A stretch of DNA of 23,284 nt from a virus. Shown one piece after another: positions 1-8,026 of the stretch. The position numbers and the translations under genes were made by a program. Within the stretch, counting starts at the first letter, position 1; each line of letters opens with the position of its first letter. The stretch lies in UHGV virus genome UHGV-0204798; one strand, given 5' to 3'. The notes beneath the pieces are model-generated. The model was not told the DNA's origin, ran no database searches, and saw only the letters and a list, made by a program, of their open reading frames with translations.

Positions 1-64
1 CGCAAGGTGTTTTAACAAATCAAAAGGGGTTTTAATAACTGGCTCAAAGCTGAAAGCTTTCCGG

Positions 65-89
65 AACCCCCAGCCTAGCCGGGGGTTTT
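65..89 (+). terminator. Terminator-like GC hairpin (AACCCCC-N9-GGGGGTT) followed by TTTC
   Basis: Perfect 7-bp stem at 65-71/81-87 with a 9-nt loop; the T run forms the 3' side of the stem. A second 7-bp hairpin (CGGGTGC-ATA-GCACCCG) sits at 104-120. Oriented for plus-strand transcription entering from the left. Confidence 0.35.
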
Positions 90-208
90 CTGTGCACAAT
101 AAGCGGGTGCATAGCACCCGTAGTTATCATACAGATACACCATCAGCTCTTTTCCATGTGGATGTGGTTATGTTCCACCAAATAGGAAGGCCGAGCGTTG
201 TATCGTAG

Positions 209-411
209 TATTCAACTGGCACAGTTGGAGAGACAGGCCTCTGCGCAGTTGTACCATATAACAAAGATGTCAACGGAGAAGTGCAGGCCGCAAACTGACT
301 GATGATGAAAAAACGCGGCTGAATGCGGTACTCGACTACATCGACGCAGTGACAGCAGTTGATGCTGACCCTGCGCCTGATATCAACTGGCCCGCTCCCC
401 CGGTTGCGTAG
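209..411 (+). pseudogene. Decayed tail fibre assembly (tfa-like) remnant, inverted relative to the intact tfa
   Basis: Plus-strand frame ending at TAG 409-411 translates to ...[39 protein letters not shown], which parallels the C-terminus of the minus-strand Tfa (...ATDDEQALL...[16 protein letters not shown]). An upstream frame-shifted segment (209-298) reads ...CAVVPYNKDVNGEVQAAN, resembling the Tfa N-terminus ([12 protein letters not shown]). No in-frame start and frames are broken. Confidence 0.4.
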
Positions 412-787
412 GCCACTCTATTTCGGGTGCCGCTGAGGTATCAACACGGTTCAGCAGTACCCTGTATTTTTTCCACGCCAGCAGTAACGCCTGTTCATCG
501 TCTGTCGCCATTTCCAAATCAACGGCATCCTGCAGCGGTGCTATTGTGTTATTTGCTACGGTCAGTAGTGCTGATTTCTGCAGCTCAGCCTCCGCAACTA
601 ACGCGTTGTGAGAGCGTTCTGGGGGAGGTGGCGCGGTAAATACTCCGTCTGAATATGACCAACCGATGCCAGCATCGCCGTTTAACGGAACTAAATTACC
701 AGCCTCTGGTTTCCATTCAGAAATTCCGTCCCAGATAATGACATTAATAACAACGTTATTATCAACAACTGCATAGACATCATTCAT
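383..787 (-). CDS. Tail fibre assembly protein (Tfa-like chaperone)
   Basis: 134-aa ORF with ATG at 785-787 directly after the TAA of the upstream fibre gene. C-terminal PEIEWP motif, as I recall for the Tfa family, and position immediately downstream of the tail fibre gene. Confidence 0.7.
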
Positions 788-1828
788 TTACATGTACTCC
801 CGAATTACCAGCACGCCATTTGCTCCGTGCCCGCCACGTCCTGACGTGTGTGAATAGCTATTATCGTATGCACCCCCGCCGCCGGAGCCAGAGCAAACTC
901 CAGGATTACCGATCAGTAGCCCAGCACGGCCGCCGCCACCCCAATAGCTCGATGCCCCATTGCCTGCTAATAGCGCCTGGCCCGCCTGTCCGTCTGAACC
1001 GTCTCCGCCTTGTTCAGTTTTATAACCGCCAGAGCCTGAGCCACCGCGCCCGCCAGCGGTATTTGTAGCGCCGCTCCATTGCCCACCCTGGCCGCCGAGC
1101 GCAATTAATGTCATGAACAAACTATTACCGCCATTATTTCCAGGCCCTGGCCCATTGGCACCACTACCACCGCTACCAATTGTCACTGTATAGGTCCCTG
1201 GCCCGGCATCGTTGTCTGTCGCATAAATAGTGGCAAAAACAGTACCTCCGGCTCCTCCGCCAGCCCCTGAAAATGTCTGATTTGCGTTCTCCGCGTTACA
1301 TCCACCGCCACCGCCGCCCGCCGCAGTCAGAATAACGTCAATTCGTTTTACGTCAGCTGGCCACGTATATAAACCCGACGATGAAAAAACGACAGTTTTG
1401 CTGTAACGCCCCGAGCCATCTCCCAAACCAAGGTATGAAAGAGCATCTTTCCACCCTGCACCATTGTTGTTAGGATCAAATAAATTTCCTTCTGTTGTAT
1501 TAATGAATATTCTCTCCCCATCGTCAGAGATGAGCATCGCCCCTGACGGATATCCAGAAATCTCCGAAGCAAACTCAGAATCAAAAGTGTTCAGCGCCCC
1601 TGTGCTCGACCATCTACCAAGAGCCGAAAGTTCGTATAAAATTTGGTTCATATCCTGGCCTTTTGGCGGCAAACCTCCAGCAGATTTCAGGATCATTGTT
1701 ATTGGAGGAAACCCCTGTTCATACGATGCTGAGTTATCACCTGCAGGGGTGGTTGGCAATATTGCCCCTCTCTGTCCATTAACTCCAAATGGCTTAGGTT
1801 GTTTTTTAGGTGAGTCAGAACGATTCAT
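788..1828 (-). CDS. Tail fibre protein with glycine-rich collagen-like repeats
   Basis: 346-aa ORF, ATG at 1826-1828 with AGGA about 9 nt upstream. Long Gly-rich tracts (GGGGGG, GSGGSGANGPGPGNNGG, GGRGGSGSGG). Located between baseplate genes and tfa. Confidence 0.6.
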   Translation of the reverse strand: MNRSDSPKKQPKPFGVNGQRGAILPTTPAGDNSASYEQGFPPITMILKSAGGLPPKGQDMNQILYELSALGRWSSTGALNTFDSEFASEISGYPSGAMLISDDGERIFINTTEGNLFDPNNNGAGWKDALSYLGLGDGSGRYSKTVVFSSSGLYTWPADVKRIDVILTAAGGGGGGCNAENANQTFSGAGGGAGGTVFATIYATDNDAGPGTYTVTIGSGGSGANGPGPGNNGGNSLFMTLIALGGQGGQWSGATNTAGGRGGSGSGGYKTEQGGDGSDGQAGQALLAGNGASSYWGGGGRAGLLIGNPGVCSGSGGGGAYDNSYSHTSGRGGHGANGVLVIREYM

Positions 1829-3709: not shown

Positions 3710-4065
3710 AAGGTGGCCTGTGCAATATTACCATTGATATCTGTAACGCGGATTGTGCCGCGAGTTGTGCGTGTATTCTTGTCAAAGAAAACTGATGCCA
3801 GAGCATCCTCAACGACAGGTAATTTGAGTGCTTCAGCCTGCATTTTCTGAGCAATAAAACCAGGAGATGGTCGCCTGCCAAGAACTTCTGCCTTCCATGG
3901 GATCCCAAGTGTATTGTCGTAATAACACTCTCCTGAAAACACCAGGCATGCACTGGCGACATCCTGAGCAACAGAATATGATTCTTCTGCGATCGCCAGA
4001 TTGCCATTTCCGTCAAGCATCAAGTCCCACGTAGAAGTGTCCAGTTGCATAGTTCTGTATGTCAT
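3706..4065 (-). CDS. Small baseplate wedge protein (gpW/GP46-like by position)
   Basis: 119-aa ORF translationally coupled to its neighbours on both sides. Assignment by size and synteny. Confidence 0.4.
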   Translation of the reverse strand: MTYRTMQLDTSTWDLMLDGNGNLAIAEESYSVAQDVASACLVFSGECYYDNTLGIPWKAEVLGRRPSPGFIAQKMQAEALKLPVVEDALASVFFDKNTRTTRGTIRVTDINGNIAQATL

Positions 4066-4754
4066 GTCGGTTTATCCGTTGCATTGGAATTTATTGTTGA
4101 CCCACCACTTTGTACTCCTGAAACAGAATGTTTGTGATTGTTATAGTTGTCCCTTAAATTTTTAACAGTAGATGACTGTGAACTTGCGTTATCCTGAATA
4201 TCGCCGCTAACTTTAAGTAAAGGTGTATTCATGTTGACTCCACCAGGAGCATCAATATTTAACGATGAACATTTAATATTTAGTGGATTAGGCGTGGTTA
4301 TGTTTATTGCACCATCAGCAAATTCAATGAATTGAGTAGGCGCAATGTTTAATACCCCACCAAGATAAATTGCATCAGATTTGCTGTGTCGTCTTTTGCT
4401 TCCAGGTACTGATTCTTTACGATTTTTTCTTACCAGTGATGTGTCTTTGTCGCAGACCGCAATCAGACCAATATCACCTGACACAGGGTCCATAATTACA
4501 GCACTGTTACCTCTCTGCAACCGCCATACGGGAAGATCATATAAAACTGAGTTAGAAATCATTTTTCCTGTACGGTCTGTTCTGGTAAGCAAAGGAAGAG
4601 CATCAACAACTAAATCTGGTGCCTCACCCCTGACTTCCTGAACTTTTGCTAACTCAATGAAGAAATATCCAGACATCAGCATCTCAAAAATATATTCCTG
4701 AGATTGAGCCTCACTTACCTGAGCAGGCGTTGGAGTAAATAGTTGCTTATCCAT
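4062..4754 (-). CDS. Baseplate central spike/hub protein (Gp138 N-domain-like)
   Basis: Track ORF 4062-4847 trimmed to the ATG at 4752-4754 (MDKQLFTPTP...), which lies just past the upstream stop at 4747-4749. Residues such as DLPVWRLQRGNSAVIMDPVSGDIGLIAV resemble spike N-terminal domains, recalled from memory. Confidence 0.45.
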   Translation of the reverse strand: MDKQLFTPTPAQVSEAQSQEYIFEMLMSGYFFIELAKVQEVRGEAPDLVVDALPLLTRTDRTGKMISNSVLYDLPVWRLQRGNSAVIMDPVSGDIGLIAVCDKDTSLVRKNRKESVPGSKRRHSKSDAIYLGGVLNIAPTQFIEFADGAINITTPNPLNIKCSSLNIDAPGGVNMNTPLLKVSGDIQDNASSQSSTVKNLRDNYNNHKHSVSGVQSGGSTINSNATDKPT

Positions 4755-5923: not shown

Positions 5924-6735
5924 GTACTCGCCTTAACTATATTTTTTGCAATATCTGCCGCTTTTTTTGTTGCGCTGTTTGTAACTTCGAGTATTGGTTT
6001 AGACACCGTATCAAGAGCACTCTGAAATTCAGTCTTTATTGTGCCGGAGATTTTTCCAGTGATTTCGCCAACAGATGACTTCAGTGATGACCATGATTTA
6101 CTTAGCTCATCGACAGTAGATTCCCTGGCTCCGCCATTGGTTATTTGCGGATCAACTCCTACATCACCCTGTGACTTATTGTTATCCGTTGGCTTCTGTT
6201 CTGACTGAGATCCAGAGAGAATAACTTCCATTTGCTGAATGACCTCCTGAAAATCAAGATAAACCGTCAGAAGAGTCACCCCTTTTTGAGAGTTAACTTC
6301 GTAATAGTGGTCAACAAGGTCGAAACTCTCCAGAGTTTCCTTTGGCGTTTCAATATCGTATGTTTTTGCAGAGGACAGCATCGTTTTGATTGTGTTCAGC
6401 GTGCTGTTCTGGCTTGTGAATGTGAGATCGAAAATATTCGGGATATTGCCGGAAAAACCAGTAAGACCATTTACGATGATTGCGCATCTTACCCTGGCGG
6501 GTTCTTTAACTTTGTTGATGGACTGGTATTTCCCTTTCTCCACCGGAGCGTTTGTTATTTGCGCCCTGCCACTTGGCTGCACGGATGCCATACCACTGAA
6601 CTCAAGAGCAACCTCGCCAGTTTCCCTGTCACGAATCACATACTGGGGATGCAGAACGCTGTCGATAATCGAAAGCGGAGAGCCGCCACCGATAGCATTG
6701 AATATGTCTGCTGTGTTTAAATCGATTATGCCCAT
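5920..6735 (-). CDS. Tail structural protein, first gene downstream of the regulatory island
   Basis: 271-aa ORF with ATG at 6733-6735 and a GGAG Shine-Dalgarno 5 nt upstream. No enzymatic motif recognised. Confidence 0.45.
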   Translation of the reverse strand: MGIIDLNTADIFNAIGGGSPLSIIDSVLHPQYVIRDRETGEVALEFSGMASVQPSGRAQITNAPVEKGKYQSINKVKEPARVRCAIIVNGLTGFSGNIPNIFDLTFTSQNSTLNTIKTMLSSAKTYDIETPKETLESFDLVDHYYEVNSQKGVTLLTVYLDFQEVIQQMEVILSGSQSEQKPTDNNKSQGDVGVDPQITNGGARESTVDELSKSWSSLKSSVGEITGKISGTIKTEFQSALDTVSKPILEVTNSATKKAADIAKNIVKAST

Positions 6736-6750
6736 CTACTCTCCATTAAA

Positions 6751-6774
6751 CAAAAAACCCAGCCGAAGCTGGGT
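6751..6774 (-). terminator. Intrinsic terminator downstream of ant
   Basis: Hairpin ACCCAGC-CGAA-GCTGGGT (6757-6763 / 6768-6774) followed on the minus strand by a TTTTTTG run (plus 6751-6756 is CAAAAA). Sits about 20 nt after the ant stop and just upstream of the next gene's RBS. Confidence 0.6.
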
Positions 6775-6792
6775 CGTTGCGTTGGTTATCTG

Positions 6793-7719
6793 TCAGTAGT
6801 TATGTACTGAAGGAGGTAATTCTTTATTCTTAAGTCTCATCCATGCGGAAAGATTCGTTGGTCCGTCTGGCTCATTGATATCAACATCTCGTGTGTGGTT
6901 TATTAAAACGTCTCTCGCCATTCCGATAACATACGAGAATTCATGACCGTAGTCGTAGCATCTGCCGGAATAGTTCGATTGAATTTGTTTTAGCGCCGGA
7001 TACAGTTCGCGGAATAATGCCTGTGAACGGTTGGCATAATCCCATAACCATACAAGGCTGTTTGCTTCTTTTGCAGAAAGCTCGTTTGCTTTCTTCTCTT
7101 GTTTGCCGATGAACTCACCTTCAAGCGGAACTCGAGCTGCAAGTGACAGTGCTTCGGTAAACTGCTCCTCACTGATTTCTTTGTATGAACATCCAAAATG
7201 GGATTTCAGTGACGACCACATGGTAATCATCGCCTTCGCCTGTTTTTCTTTTGGCAGAGACTGACCGCGACTCATGACAAGTTGTTTAATGGCTTCCTGC
7301 TGTTCAGTGGTGATTTTGCCCGGCAACGCCTTTTTAGCTTTGCGTGGATTAACCACATGGCCTTTAGTCCAGTACTCATAGAGCACATCGTCACACTCTT
7401 CCTGATACTGGATTACCTTGTCGCGGATTTCAGGGCGGACTTTGTTAGGACTGATGGTTTGCAGCCAGCCAGCAAGTTTGCGAAGTGCCAAACAAATAAT
7501 CTCACGGCACTGTTCATCACCAGGAAGCTGCATTGTGATTTTCACAATGGAGGTTTTAAACCGTTGCTTTATTTTCGTAAACTGTGAAGCCCAATCCATA
7601 CCCATTCCCTCAACGATAGGTTTCATTGGGGTGTACGGTTCGCCGTTGTGATTGACAACATAAAGCTCTGCGCCGTGAAATGGCACGTTGATAGTAGATA
7701 CCGCGGTTGCTATACTCAT
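6793..7719 (-). CDS. ant: Phage antirepressor (Ant-like)
   Basis: Track ORF 6793-7773 starts with GTG; the likely start is ATG at 7717-7719 (MSIATAVSTINVPFHGAELYVV...) with AAGGA 9 nt upstream. N-terminal NVPFxGxELYVV...HNGEPYTPMKPIVEGMGMDW block recalled as typical of enterobacterial phage antirepressors. Lies directly downstream of an Arc-like gene and divergent from an Mnt-like gene. Confidence 0.65.
   Translation of the reverse strand: MSIATAVSTINVPFHGAELYVVNHNGEPYTPMKPIVEGMGMDWASQFTKIKQRFKTSIVKITMQLPGDEQCREIICLALRKLAGWLQTISPNKVRPEIRDKVIQYQEECDDVLYEYWTKGHVVNPRKAKKALPGKITTEQQEAIKQLVMSRGQSLPKEKQAKAMITMWSSLKSHFGCSYKEISEEQFTEALSLAARVPLEGEFIGKQEKKANELSAKEANSLVWLWDYANRSQALFRELYPALKQIQSNYSGRCYDYGHEFSYVIGMARDVLINHTRDVDINEPDGPTNLSAWMRLKNKELPPSVHNY
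7688..7716 (+). promoter_or_regulatory. Candidate sigma70 promoter firing antisense to ant (Psar-like)
   Basis: TTGATA (7688-7693), 17-nt spacer, TATACT (7711-7716). The -10 element overlaps the ant start codon on the opposite strand. Confidence 0.4.
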
Positions 7720-7722
7720 TTC

Positions 7723-7793
7723 GTTAGTTCCTTGGAAGTTACTGACATAGAAGCCCGATTTGTGTTCGCGCACTGTCGGGCTTCGCTATTTTT
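7723..7793 (+). ncRNA. Candidate ~70-nt antisense RNA covering the ant RBS (sar-like)
   Basis: Predicted start about 7 nt after the -10 element. Ends at a 9-bp hairpin GAAGCCCGA/TCGGGCTTC (7750-7758 / 7776-7784, 17-nt loop) followed by GCTATTTTT (T run 7789-7793). Complementary to the ant Shine-Dalgarno (plus 7729-7733) and the arc-ant intergenic region. Confidence 0.4.
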
Positions 7794-7959
7794 ATGTCCT
7801 AGCATTCTTCTCTCCAATCAGTCCGTACACTTTTCTCAATTGATAAACAAGTTCCGTGTTGAACTGTCGACACTCTTTTTCTCCATTTCTTTCAATCGCC
7901 TTCCTTACATCCTCTGGGAAACGAACCTTGCGTTGATACATGTCTTTTGCTTTTTCCAT
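7792..7959 (-). CDS. arc: Arc-like ribbon-helix-helix DNA-binding protein (55 aa), not in the ORF track
   Basis: Codon-by-codon reading of the minus strand from ATG (plus 7957-7959) to TAA (plus 7792-7794) gives MEKAKDMYQRKVRFPEDVRKAIERNGEKECRQFNTELVYQLRKVYGLIGEKNART. AAGGAG Shine-Dalgarno 5 nt upstream. Beta-strand (KVRFP) then two helices, the RHH pattern of P22 Arc. Sits immediately upstream of ant. Confidence 0.6.
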   Translation of the reverse strand: MEKAKDMYQRKVRFPEDVRKAIERNGEKECRQFNTELVYQLRKVYGLIGEKNART

Positions 7960-7976
7960 CTCCACTCCTTAAATAG

Positions 7977-7989
7977 CCTCACTGTGGGG
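7977..7989. promoter_or_regulatory. Operator-like imperfect palindrome CCTCACtGTGGGG
   Basis: 11 of 13 positions symmetric. Lies in the 5' leader of the leftward arc-ant transcript, between the -10 element and the arc Shine-Dalgarno. Confidence 0.45.
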
Positions 7990-7997
7990 TAGTCAAA

Positions 7998-8026
7998 ATT
8001 GTCACACCGTGCGTCATTGAAGTCAA
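7998..8026 (-). promoter_or_regulatory. Candidate leftward promoter for arc-ant (Pant-like)
   Basis: Minus strand reads TTGACT (plus 8021-8026), 17-nt spacer, TGn-GACAAT (plus 7998-8003). Its -35 overlaps the -35 of the divergent rightward promoter. Confidence 0.45.

Follow-up and report, generated by a model that had tools for sequence, protein, structure and literature searches.

A probable relic of a locked, half-deleted tail-fibre inversion switch in a myovirus-type E. coli prophage

The invertible segments Mu G (gin) and P1 C (cin) are active systems in which a constant fibre part is followed by a crossover site and by two sets of tip and chaperone genes that are arranged tail-to-tail. 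Inversion of the P segment of e14 has been demonstrated experimentally and is carried out by PinE, and PinQ of Qin is also able to invert this segment in trans (PMC12529663). We analyzed a 23,284-nt stretch of a viral genome (UHGV-0204798; hereafter the window) that carries the structural genes of a contractile-tail (myovirus-type) E. coli prophage. Pfam searches delineated a gene run that leads from small and large terminase, portal, a DUF3383 sheath and an SLT tape measure to baseplate J, a DUF2612 wedge, the fibre and tfa. An original prediction, made from the sequence alone, had placed a fossilised invertible tail-fibre switch at the fibre end of this run. Our data agree with this proposal: positions ~127-1443 are very probably what is left of an invertible host-range segment of the Pin/Gin type, now locked and half deleted, as indicated by a centre of the e14 type, a pix-like crossover site, a mirror-image fossil and a pin remnant in sibling prophages, and an intact homologue in Pantoea. 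The features that make up the locus are collected in Table 1.

Table 1. Features of the locus, with positions counted from the first nucleotide of the window.
Feature	Positions	Strand	Details
IS200 left end (by sequence match)	1-98	minus	remainder left of the window; includes hairpin 63-89
G+C-rich hairpin GCGGGTGC-ATA-GCACCCGT, predicted terminator	103-121	both	between gtrC (plus) and tailspike remnant/late tail operon (minus)
Tailspike/tail-fibre gene 3' remnant, apparent pseudogene fragment	127-264	minus	last 45 codons + stop
3' remnant of tfaE-type tail fibre assembly gene (tfa')	268-411	plus	TfaE residues ~152-200 of 200
Convergent overlap of two tfa 3' ends	383-411	both	29 bp
Intact tail fibre assembly (chaperone) gene tfa	383-787	minus	134 aa; Caudo_TAP PF02413
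Tail fibre gene	788-1828	minus	346 aa; Gly_rich_2 E 1.9e-16 (Pfam)
Orphan pix/gix-like crossover site CCATCTCCCAAACC-AA-GGTATGAAAGAG	1416-1443		core AA 1430-1431

Two near-identical contigs extend the window to the left. A metagenome contig (L017) that is 100% identical to the window ends 160 nt beyond its left end, within IS200, and an E. coli contig (L012) that is 99.99% identical reaches 9 kb further left. The flank in L012 holds a complete IS200 of ~707 bp, then gtrC-gtrB-gtrA, and then host ybhB and the bio operon, with the IS200 sitting between the gtrC stop codon and hairpin 103-121. Within the window, block 98-1434 shares 96-98% identity with e14/Mu-like prophages, and the sequences are unrelated from 1435 onward. 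On the constant side of the fibre, 1445-2469 is 82-88% identical to sibling DUF2612-type prophages that bear other tips. As a separate observation, the two phage backbones with block 98-1434 use the same ybhB/bio-side end.

We also searched for the locus among 5426 complete E. coli genomes. The glycine-rich tip/tfa cassette was present in 67-68 of them and the pair of tfa' and tailspike fragments in 69, near-identical counts that suggest that cassette and fossil travel together. With the fragment pair in 69 genomes, the same fossil seems to be common to all 67-68 that have the cassette. Each of 67 complete genomes with the cassette gave one collinear full-length match and none was an orientation variant, a comparison that was made at the level of complete genomes.

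The minus-strand tfa was found to be intact, as had been proposed, with an ORF of the full 134 aa that scores 114.6 bits against Caudo_TAP (E 4.5e-33; curated cut-off 22.1 bits) and encodes a protein 51.7% identical to the Tfa in the intact Pantoea switch. The adjoining fibre gene consists of two parts, a glycine-rich variable tip (788-1429) and a constant N-terminal part that is specific to the phage family (1432-1828).

A second Tfa-like C-terminus had been noticed on the plus strand, converging on tfa, and alignment tools reproduce this similarity. The plus-strand frame 262-408 scores 41.3 bits against Caudo_TAP (E 2e-10; cut-off 22.1 bits), and the match is restricted to profile positions 94-130 of 131, which marks it as a C-terminal fragment. 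Against TfaE of e14, the remnant is 71% identical over residues 159-200 by tblastn and 67% identical over residues 156-200 by blastp (E 2.6e-17), whereas its blastp identity to TfaP is lower, at 45%. By this comparison, tfa' is unlikely to have arisen from the resident tfa through a local inverted duplication. At the DNA level, homology to e14 tfaE begins at ~270 and runs to 445, and the alignment of 269-411 with tfaE scores 112, compared to 27.6 ± 4.7 for shuffled sequences. The plus-strand Tfa remnant that converges on tfa is real and lies far beyond chance.

The description of this second copy as startless and frame-broken was also confirmed: a start codon is missing, the reading frame is closed just upstream by a stop at 259-261, and relative to e14 tfaE the copy carries indels of +1 and -4 near 277 and 293. 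Its own stop, TAG, occupies 409-411, where the original prediction had put it, and the measured overlap with tfa is the 29 bp that had been claimed. In two comparison loci (L001 and L002), PGAP labels the same stretch a pseudogene, "tail fiber assembly protein, incomplete, missing N-terminus", and the remnant carries an in-frame stop in L001. An identical 29-bp overlap was found between tfaP and tfaE of e14 (L005, 4518-4546), between tfaS' and yfdK of CPS-53 (L010, 5078-5106), and in both L001 and L002. The likeness that had been drawn to the tail-to-tail arrangement of the e14 P segment is borne out at this level, where the tfa/tfa' pair corresponds by homology to the middle of the P segment, 29-bp overlap included.

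We next consider the site at which such a segment would recombine. A crossover-like site lies at the constant/variable junction of the fibre, where it encodes ...SYLGLGDG.... Positions 1416-1436, CCATCTCCCAAACCAAGGTAT, agree with the reverse complement of e14 pixL at 19/21 positions (chance expectation 0), and the site matches the published e14 inverted repeats TTGGTTTGGGAGAAGG / CCTTCTCCCAAACCAA (PMC12529663). The fibre gene had been proposed as a place to search for an inverted-repeat crossover site: the one pix-like site is there and the inverted partner is not. Pattern and inverted-repeat searches of the 23-kb window returned no second site at <=3 mismatches and no inverted-repeat partner, and the expected paired sites were found in e14 and Pantoea, which served as the comparison for this search.

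The recombinase and the second tip are likewise missing. No resolvase-type Pfam domain was detected among the main ORFs of the window, and tblastn with PinE, which recovered its positive controls in e14, YP3 and Pantoea, found no invertase in the window or in the 9-kb left flank in L012; most siblings likewise gave no match. Neither an alternative fibre tip nor a partner site occurs in the window or across the adjoining 9 kb on the left, and the second set is reduced to ~49 chaperone codons. The sequence left of the window had been named as the place to look for an invertase and an alternative fibre tip, and over those 9 kb (IS200, gtrCBA, ybhB, bio) both are absent, as predicted for a fossil.

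Homology to L002 and to L020-L022 breaks off at the crossover-like site, and between the e14/Mu-like prophages and the window backbone the breakpoint coincides with the 2-bp core of the site to within ±3 nt. Such a pattern might mean that the switch is still usable in trans, with the orphan site recombined by the Pin-family invertase of another prophage and a partner site located elsewhere, giving rise to chromosomal inversions or cassette exchange. PinQ of Qin, which inverts the e14 P segment in trans, provides a precedent (PMC12529663), and the 19/21 identity to e14 pixL and the sharing of the cassette by two unrelated backbones, with a breakpoint at the site core ±3 nt, are consistent with it. 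We nevertheless consider such use quite improbable: the 23-kb window offers one site and lacks a second tip that could be exchanged, the half-site on the constant side, GGTATGAAAGAG, differs from its e14 counterparts, and the 67 genomes include no orientation variants of the cassette. The position of the breakpoints is the one piece of positive evidence for it, and homologous recombination in the conserved LGLG-coding stretch accounts for that position equally well. It is also unlikely that the orphan site serves the Pin-family invertases of co-resident prophages in the exchange of the fibre-tip/chaperone cassette and gtr module between unrelated backbones, an invertase-mediated exchange that would explain why block 98-1434 is common, at 96-98% identity, to e14/Mu-like and DUF2612-type prophages.

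The left boundary of the putative locked segment required a different reading from the one originally given. A frame-shifted piece of a Tfa N-terminus had been placed upstream of tfa', and this claim did not hold. With full-length TfaE, TfaP and YP3 Tfa as queries, tblastn gave no Tfa match in 120-262 in any frame at E<=10, and 121-268 aligned to the first 470 nt of tfaE with a score of 27, compared to 26.9 ± 4.5 for shuffles. The stretch instead matches the C-terminus of a tailspike on the minus strand. The encoded peptide, YGTTAQRPVSPTVPVEYYDTTLGLPIWWNITTSTWKRADGVSV, ends in two stop codons (TGA at 127-129 and TAA at 124-126) and aligns to residues 584-626 of CBA120 TSP3 (PDB 6NW9/5W6F; E 1e-12). 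It matches 255 phage records by tblastn (best E 1e-10), and in the three loci that we inspected (CBA120, BUCT789 and MK54) the match sits at the last codons of the CDS. The best of these matches are only ~57% identical, and the C-terminus of CBA120 TSP3 stands at 57%. In L002 the tailspike remnant is frameshifted. With 127-264 read as a tailspike end, 127-411 becomes two 3' fragments on opposite strands that meet head-to-head at ~265-268.

The two hairpins that had been reported just upstream do exist, at 63-89 and 103-121; as parts of a switch they fall away, since the first belongs to IS200 and the second to gtrC and the tailspike. The left end of the window is 99% identical over 103 nt to the left end of IS200C, upstream of tnpA in many E. 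coli genomes, and it scores 85.9 bits against the Rfam family STnc490/art200 (gathering score 56). A tnpA gene with a Y1_Tnp domain is present in L012-L018, and the match to the IS200C locus spans 721 nt. The published map of the 707-bp IS200 places a bidirectional terminator at nt 12-34 (PMC4513863), and hairpin 63-89 corresponds to these nucleotides. Judging from these matches, 1-98 is the left end of IS200 together with its terminator hairpin. Rfam also returned sub-threshold matches to sR9 and TB9Cs1H3, which we took as noise.

The second hairpin has a folding energy of -14.3 kcal/mol, with z values of -5.1 (plus strand) and -4.3 (minus strand), and scores as a minus-strand terminator. In L002, which has no IS200, the equivalent hairpin lies 3 nt past the stop of a gtrC-like gene. 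By its fold and position, hairpin 103-121 is the predicted terminator of gtrC and the tailspike, now parted from gtrC by IS200.

The presence of an open frame followed by a terminator raises the question of whether the fragments have taken on a new function, as a small gene or an sRNA in the manner of ryeG/yodE of K-12 CPS-53. A 48-aa minus-strand ORF (127-273) precedes the terminator, and it matches YodE in length, in strand and in its position between gtrC/yfdI and tfaS' (PMC7498339); a weak sigma-70-like site is also found on the minus strand at 444-415. Recruitment of this kind is very improbable, however, as the ORF bears no sequence similarity to YodE, starts with TTG with no purine-rich ribosome-binding sequence upstream (by eye), is frameshifted in the L002 lineage, and has a sequence that is fully accounted for by the tailspike C-terminus. 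The promoter-like matches, 2 versus a shuffled expectation of 0.9 ± 1.0, are not above background. Three short hypothetical proteins of E. coli were the only matches in a protein-level homologue search with this 48-aa ORF. A direct link to YodE/ryeG was examined separately and rejected: YodE is unlike the window ORF and has no tailspike-like phage match of its own (E 0.5). If the late tail operon ends at hairpin 121-103, as predicted, the two fragments would form its untranslated 3' region, their only likely present role.

If the locus is the remnant of an inversion switch, related prophages might hold other states of the same system. The sibling prophages share the constant side with the window up to the crossover-like site and then carry different tips. 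One of them (L021) is a mirror-image fossil, in which the coding strand carries an StfE-like tip and a full-length TfaE-like tfa, and a TfaP-like C-terminal remnant converges on them. Another (L020) is the only sibling with a trace of an invertase, a C-terminal remnant that is 76% identical to PinE over residues 144-184 and lies on the strand that the e14 layout would predict. None of the seven sibling prophages sampled has an intact switch, and neither the complete E. coli genomes nor the phage records searched hold a near-identical intact switch with the glycine-rich tip/tfa cassette.

A scan of genome contigs found only two relatives of the cassette, both in Pantoea, and one of them is intact. 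In Candidatus Pantoea varia OV426 (L028), a glycine-rich fibre, convergent tfa genes, an StfE-like tip, inverted repeats and an invertase are all present. Its glycine-rich tip is accompanied by a Tfa that is 52% identical to that of the window, and the opposite strand carries a TfaE-like tfa (40% to TfaE over its full length) and an StfE-like tip (43% to StfE). Unlike the window, it retains an adjacent invertase, 71% identical to PinE, and inverted repeats of 22 bp that match perfectly and lie 2097 nt apart; its tfa genes are separated by 26 nt and do not overlap.

That tfa' is merely debris of ordinary fibre-module mosaicism or of a local inverted duplication, with the pix-like sequence kept for its LGLG coding, is hardly credible: tail fibre and tfa genes are highly mosaic, a crossover site inside coding sequence would be conserved for two reasons and 0/7 sampled siblings have an intact switch, but the tail-to-tail geometry and identical 29-bp overlap are those of e14, where inversion is experimentally shown, the TfaE-type remnant (67% to TfaE versus 45% to TfaP) was not copied from a TfaP-type tfa, and, had there been no invertible ancestor, neither the mirror fossil in L021 nor the pin remnant in L020 would be easy to account for.

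We return, then, to the reading of the locus as a locked inversion switch and propose how it could have arisen. The ancestral layout is reconstructed from the e14 and Pantoea homologues, at 40-71% protein identity, because complete E. coli genomes hold no near-identical living copy. In the ancestor, the constant fibre part would have been followed by a crossover site, by tip A and tfa A converging on tfa B and tip B, and then by a second crossover site and the invertase. Of these parts, the window still has the proximal site (1416-1443), the glycine-rich tip A, tfa A (383-787) and, from tfa B, ~49 codons at the 3' end (268-411). Illegitimate recombination may have removed tip B, the invertase, the distal site and all earlier codons of tfa B. 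At the resulting junction, tfa B would have been cut at ~codon 152 and fused head-to-head with a tailspike gene of which the final 45 codons remain (127-264, minus strand). The tailspike end would have arrived with its terminator hairpin (103-121) and with the convergent gtrABC O-antigen-modification module, in a P22-type layout, and this gtrABC/tailspike-end module would have replaced the distal half of the segment and locked the fibre in its glycine-rich state. Insertion of IS200 between gtrC and the terminator hairpin would be a later event, and the block may then have spread or been exchanged between two phage backbones.

What remains of the proposed switch is homology to the centre of a proven segment, with the 29-bp overlap, and a crossover site kept at the constant/variable junction. 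The invertase, the paired inverted sites and the two full tip and chaperone sets of an active Din-family switch are not found. As invertase, paired sites and alternative tip are all missing, we file the locus as a relic and not as a switch. From its gene content, the fibre would be unable to switch and the relic non-functional. A frameshift in the tailspike fragment of L002 and an in-frame stop in the tfa fragment of L001 indicate that both fragments are decaying pseudogenes.

Taken alone, this locus is of little importance, as it is an ordinary relic that is already marked as a pseudogene in RefSeq. It would nonetheless serve as an example of how a host-range switch dies, with one orientation frozen and the distal half and invertase replaced by a lysogenic-conversion module. 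Our analysis also corrects the reading of the region to two pseudogene fragments on opposite strands plus the end of an IS200, and it indicates that pseudogenes which PGAP annotates as "tail fiber assembly protein, missing N-terminus" and which adjoin gtr operons are switch fossils. The conserved crossover site marks a module boundary for the exchange of fibre tips between unrelated prophage types. In addition, inverted cryptic fibre cassettes can act in phage defence (PinQ/StfE2, e14), and the distinction between usable and locked sites is therefore relevant there.

Among known systems, the e14 P segment supplies the model for the centre of the locus. The two share tail-to-tail tfa genes, the identical 29-bp overlap, a remnant 67-71% identical to the TfaE C-terminus, and a crossover site (19/21 identical) where the fibre gene encodes the ...LGLG... 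junction. In e14 the pair of 21-nt inverted repeats is complete, with a spacing of 1797 nt, and stfE (the alternative tip) and the adjacent pinE are present; in the window, a lone site and only 49 codons of the second tfa survive, and both the alternative tip and the invertase are missing. Sequence-level comparison with the Mu/P1 type covered Yersinia phage YP3, in which gin lies ~375 nt downstream of tfa and the 3' end of tfa is 79% identical to positions 337-411 of the window.

The other side of the junction resembles the right end of P22 in its layout, where tailspike and gtrC-gtrB-gtrA converge on one hairpin and attP follows gtrA. In the window and L012 together, the order is gtrA-gtrB-gtrC, IS200, hairpin and tailspike 3' end, adjoining host ybhB/bio. 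Unlike P22, the window keeps only the last 45 codons of a tailspike, which is of the CBA120 TSP3-like kind (57%), and the phage is of the contractile-tail type. An end structure of the P22 type would explain why a tailspike 3' end and a terminator adjoin gtrC here.

A literature search for a junction of gtr genes and a tfa remnant described as a switch fossil found nothing specific. The closest catalogued equivalent is the CPS-53 (KpLE1) prophage of K-12, which carries yfdGHI (gtrABC), a short minus-strand element and a truncated plus-strand tfaS pseudogene of the TfaE type. As in the window, tfaS overlaps an intact minus-strand gene, yfdK, by 29 bp, and the fibre gene yfdL has a pix-like site. 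The two loci differ in that tfaS keeps ~100 codons, compared to ~49 in the window, in that ryeG/yodE, which occupies the interval from gtrC to tfaS, shows no sequence relationship to the window's tailspike fragment, and in that CPS-53 has another fibre tip, with yfdL itself truncated. CPS-53 is a fossil of the same kind, and the window is another member.

The IS200 copy at the left end of the window had inserted exactly in the gap between the gtrC stop codon and the terminator hairpin. The window starts within this element; a metagenome contig of identical sequence, L017, runs 160 nt deeper into it before stopping, an assembly break typical of repeats. Past IS200, neither of two read-set assemblies (L018 and L019) carried gtrCBA; their different flanks reflect either rearrangement mediated by IS200 or chimeric assembly at the repeat.

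Coordinates of features at the window's left end, in its tfa gene and tail gene cluster, and in related sequences
Feature	Sequence	Position	Strand	Remark
IS200 copy	Window	1-98		
IS200 copy	L012, E. coli contig	11829-12540		
STnc490/art200 match	Window	1-87	-	Rfam
LysR regulator, Asp/Glu racemase, DcuA/DcuB-family transporter	L018	7404-10776		Beyond IS200
Single unannotated gene, 404 aa	L019	6793-8007		Beyond IS200
Pin-type invertase pseudogene	L020, E. coli STEC299	3866-3976		C-terminal 41 residues
Fibre gene	L002, E. coli 2013C-4282	6686-7618		Two RefSeq entries
IS009 match	Window	432-620	-	Inside tfa coding sequence
YodE (ryeG RNA)	L010, K-12 CPS-53	4498-4644		48 aa, toxic small protein
Antirepressor gene	Window	within 6793-8456	-	P22_AR_N + P22_AR_C
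Arc-like repressor gene	Window	within 6793-8456	+	

Comparison of the sibling prophages (L020, L025 and L026) indicated that the site just past fibre and tfa is a hotspot for varied cargo that modifies surface polysaccharides: in the window's phage family this cargo was gtrABC, a serine acetyltransferase, a GDSL esterase or an acyltransferase family protein. These prophages occupy five or more sites in the host (near ybhB/bio, torT, dacD, argW-tRNA and purK). At the fibre end of one sibling, L020, the serine acetyltransferase moron adjoins a remnant currently labelled 'helix-turn-helix domain-containing protein, missing N-terminus', which we recognized as the end of a Pin-type invertase (76% against residues 144-184 of PinE, the e14 invertase).

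RefSeq splits the chimeric fibre of the relative L002 into an 'stfP pseudogene, missing C-terminus' and a separate 'glycine-rich domain-containing protein'. Despite this split, the fibre is probably intact, since its reading frame runs unbroken through the pix crossover site (MHRIDTK...ENLGLGDGSGRYSK...). Within the window's own tfa, the match to Rfam IS009 was full-length but sub-threshold (47 bits, E 1.3e-9, gathering score 117), and its position inside coding sequence suggests that this candidate sRNA family was built from prophage tfa-like sequence.

YodE of CPS-53 and the window's tailspike-remnant ORF are both 48 aa long and agree in strand and location, with gtrC/yfdI on one side and the tfa pseudogene on the other. 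Their sequences are unlike, and YodE had no match to phage tailspikes (E 0.5). Farther along, the antirepressor and Arc-like repressor genes interrupt the tail cluster, with the tape-measure gene (SLT domain) on one side and baseplate genes on the other. This region is broken in some relatives (L001 and L023); in the window, the pair resembles the arrangement of the P22 immI region.
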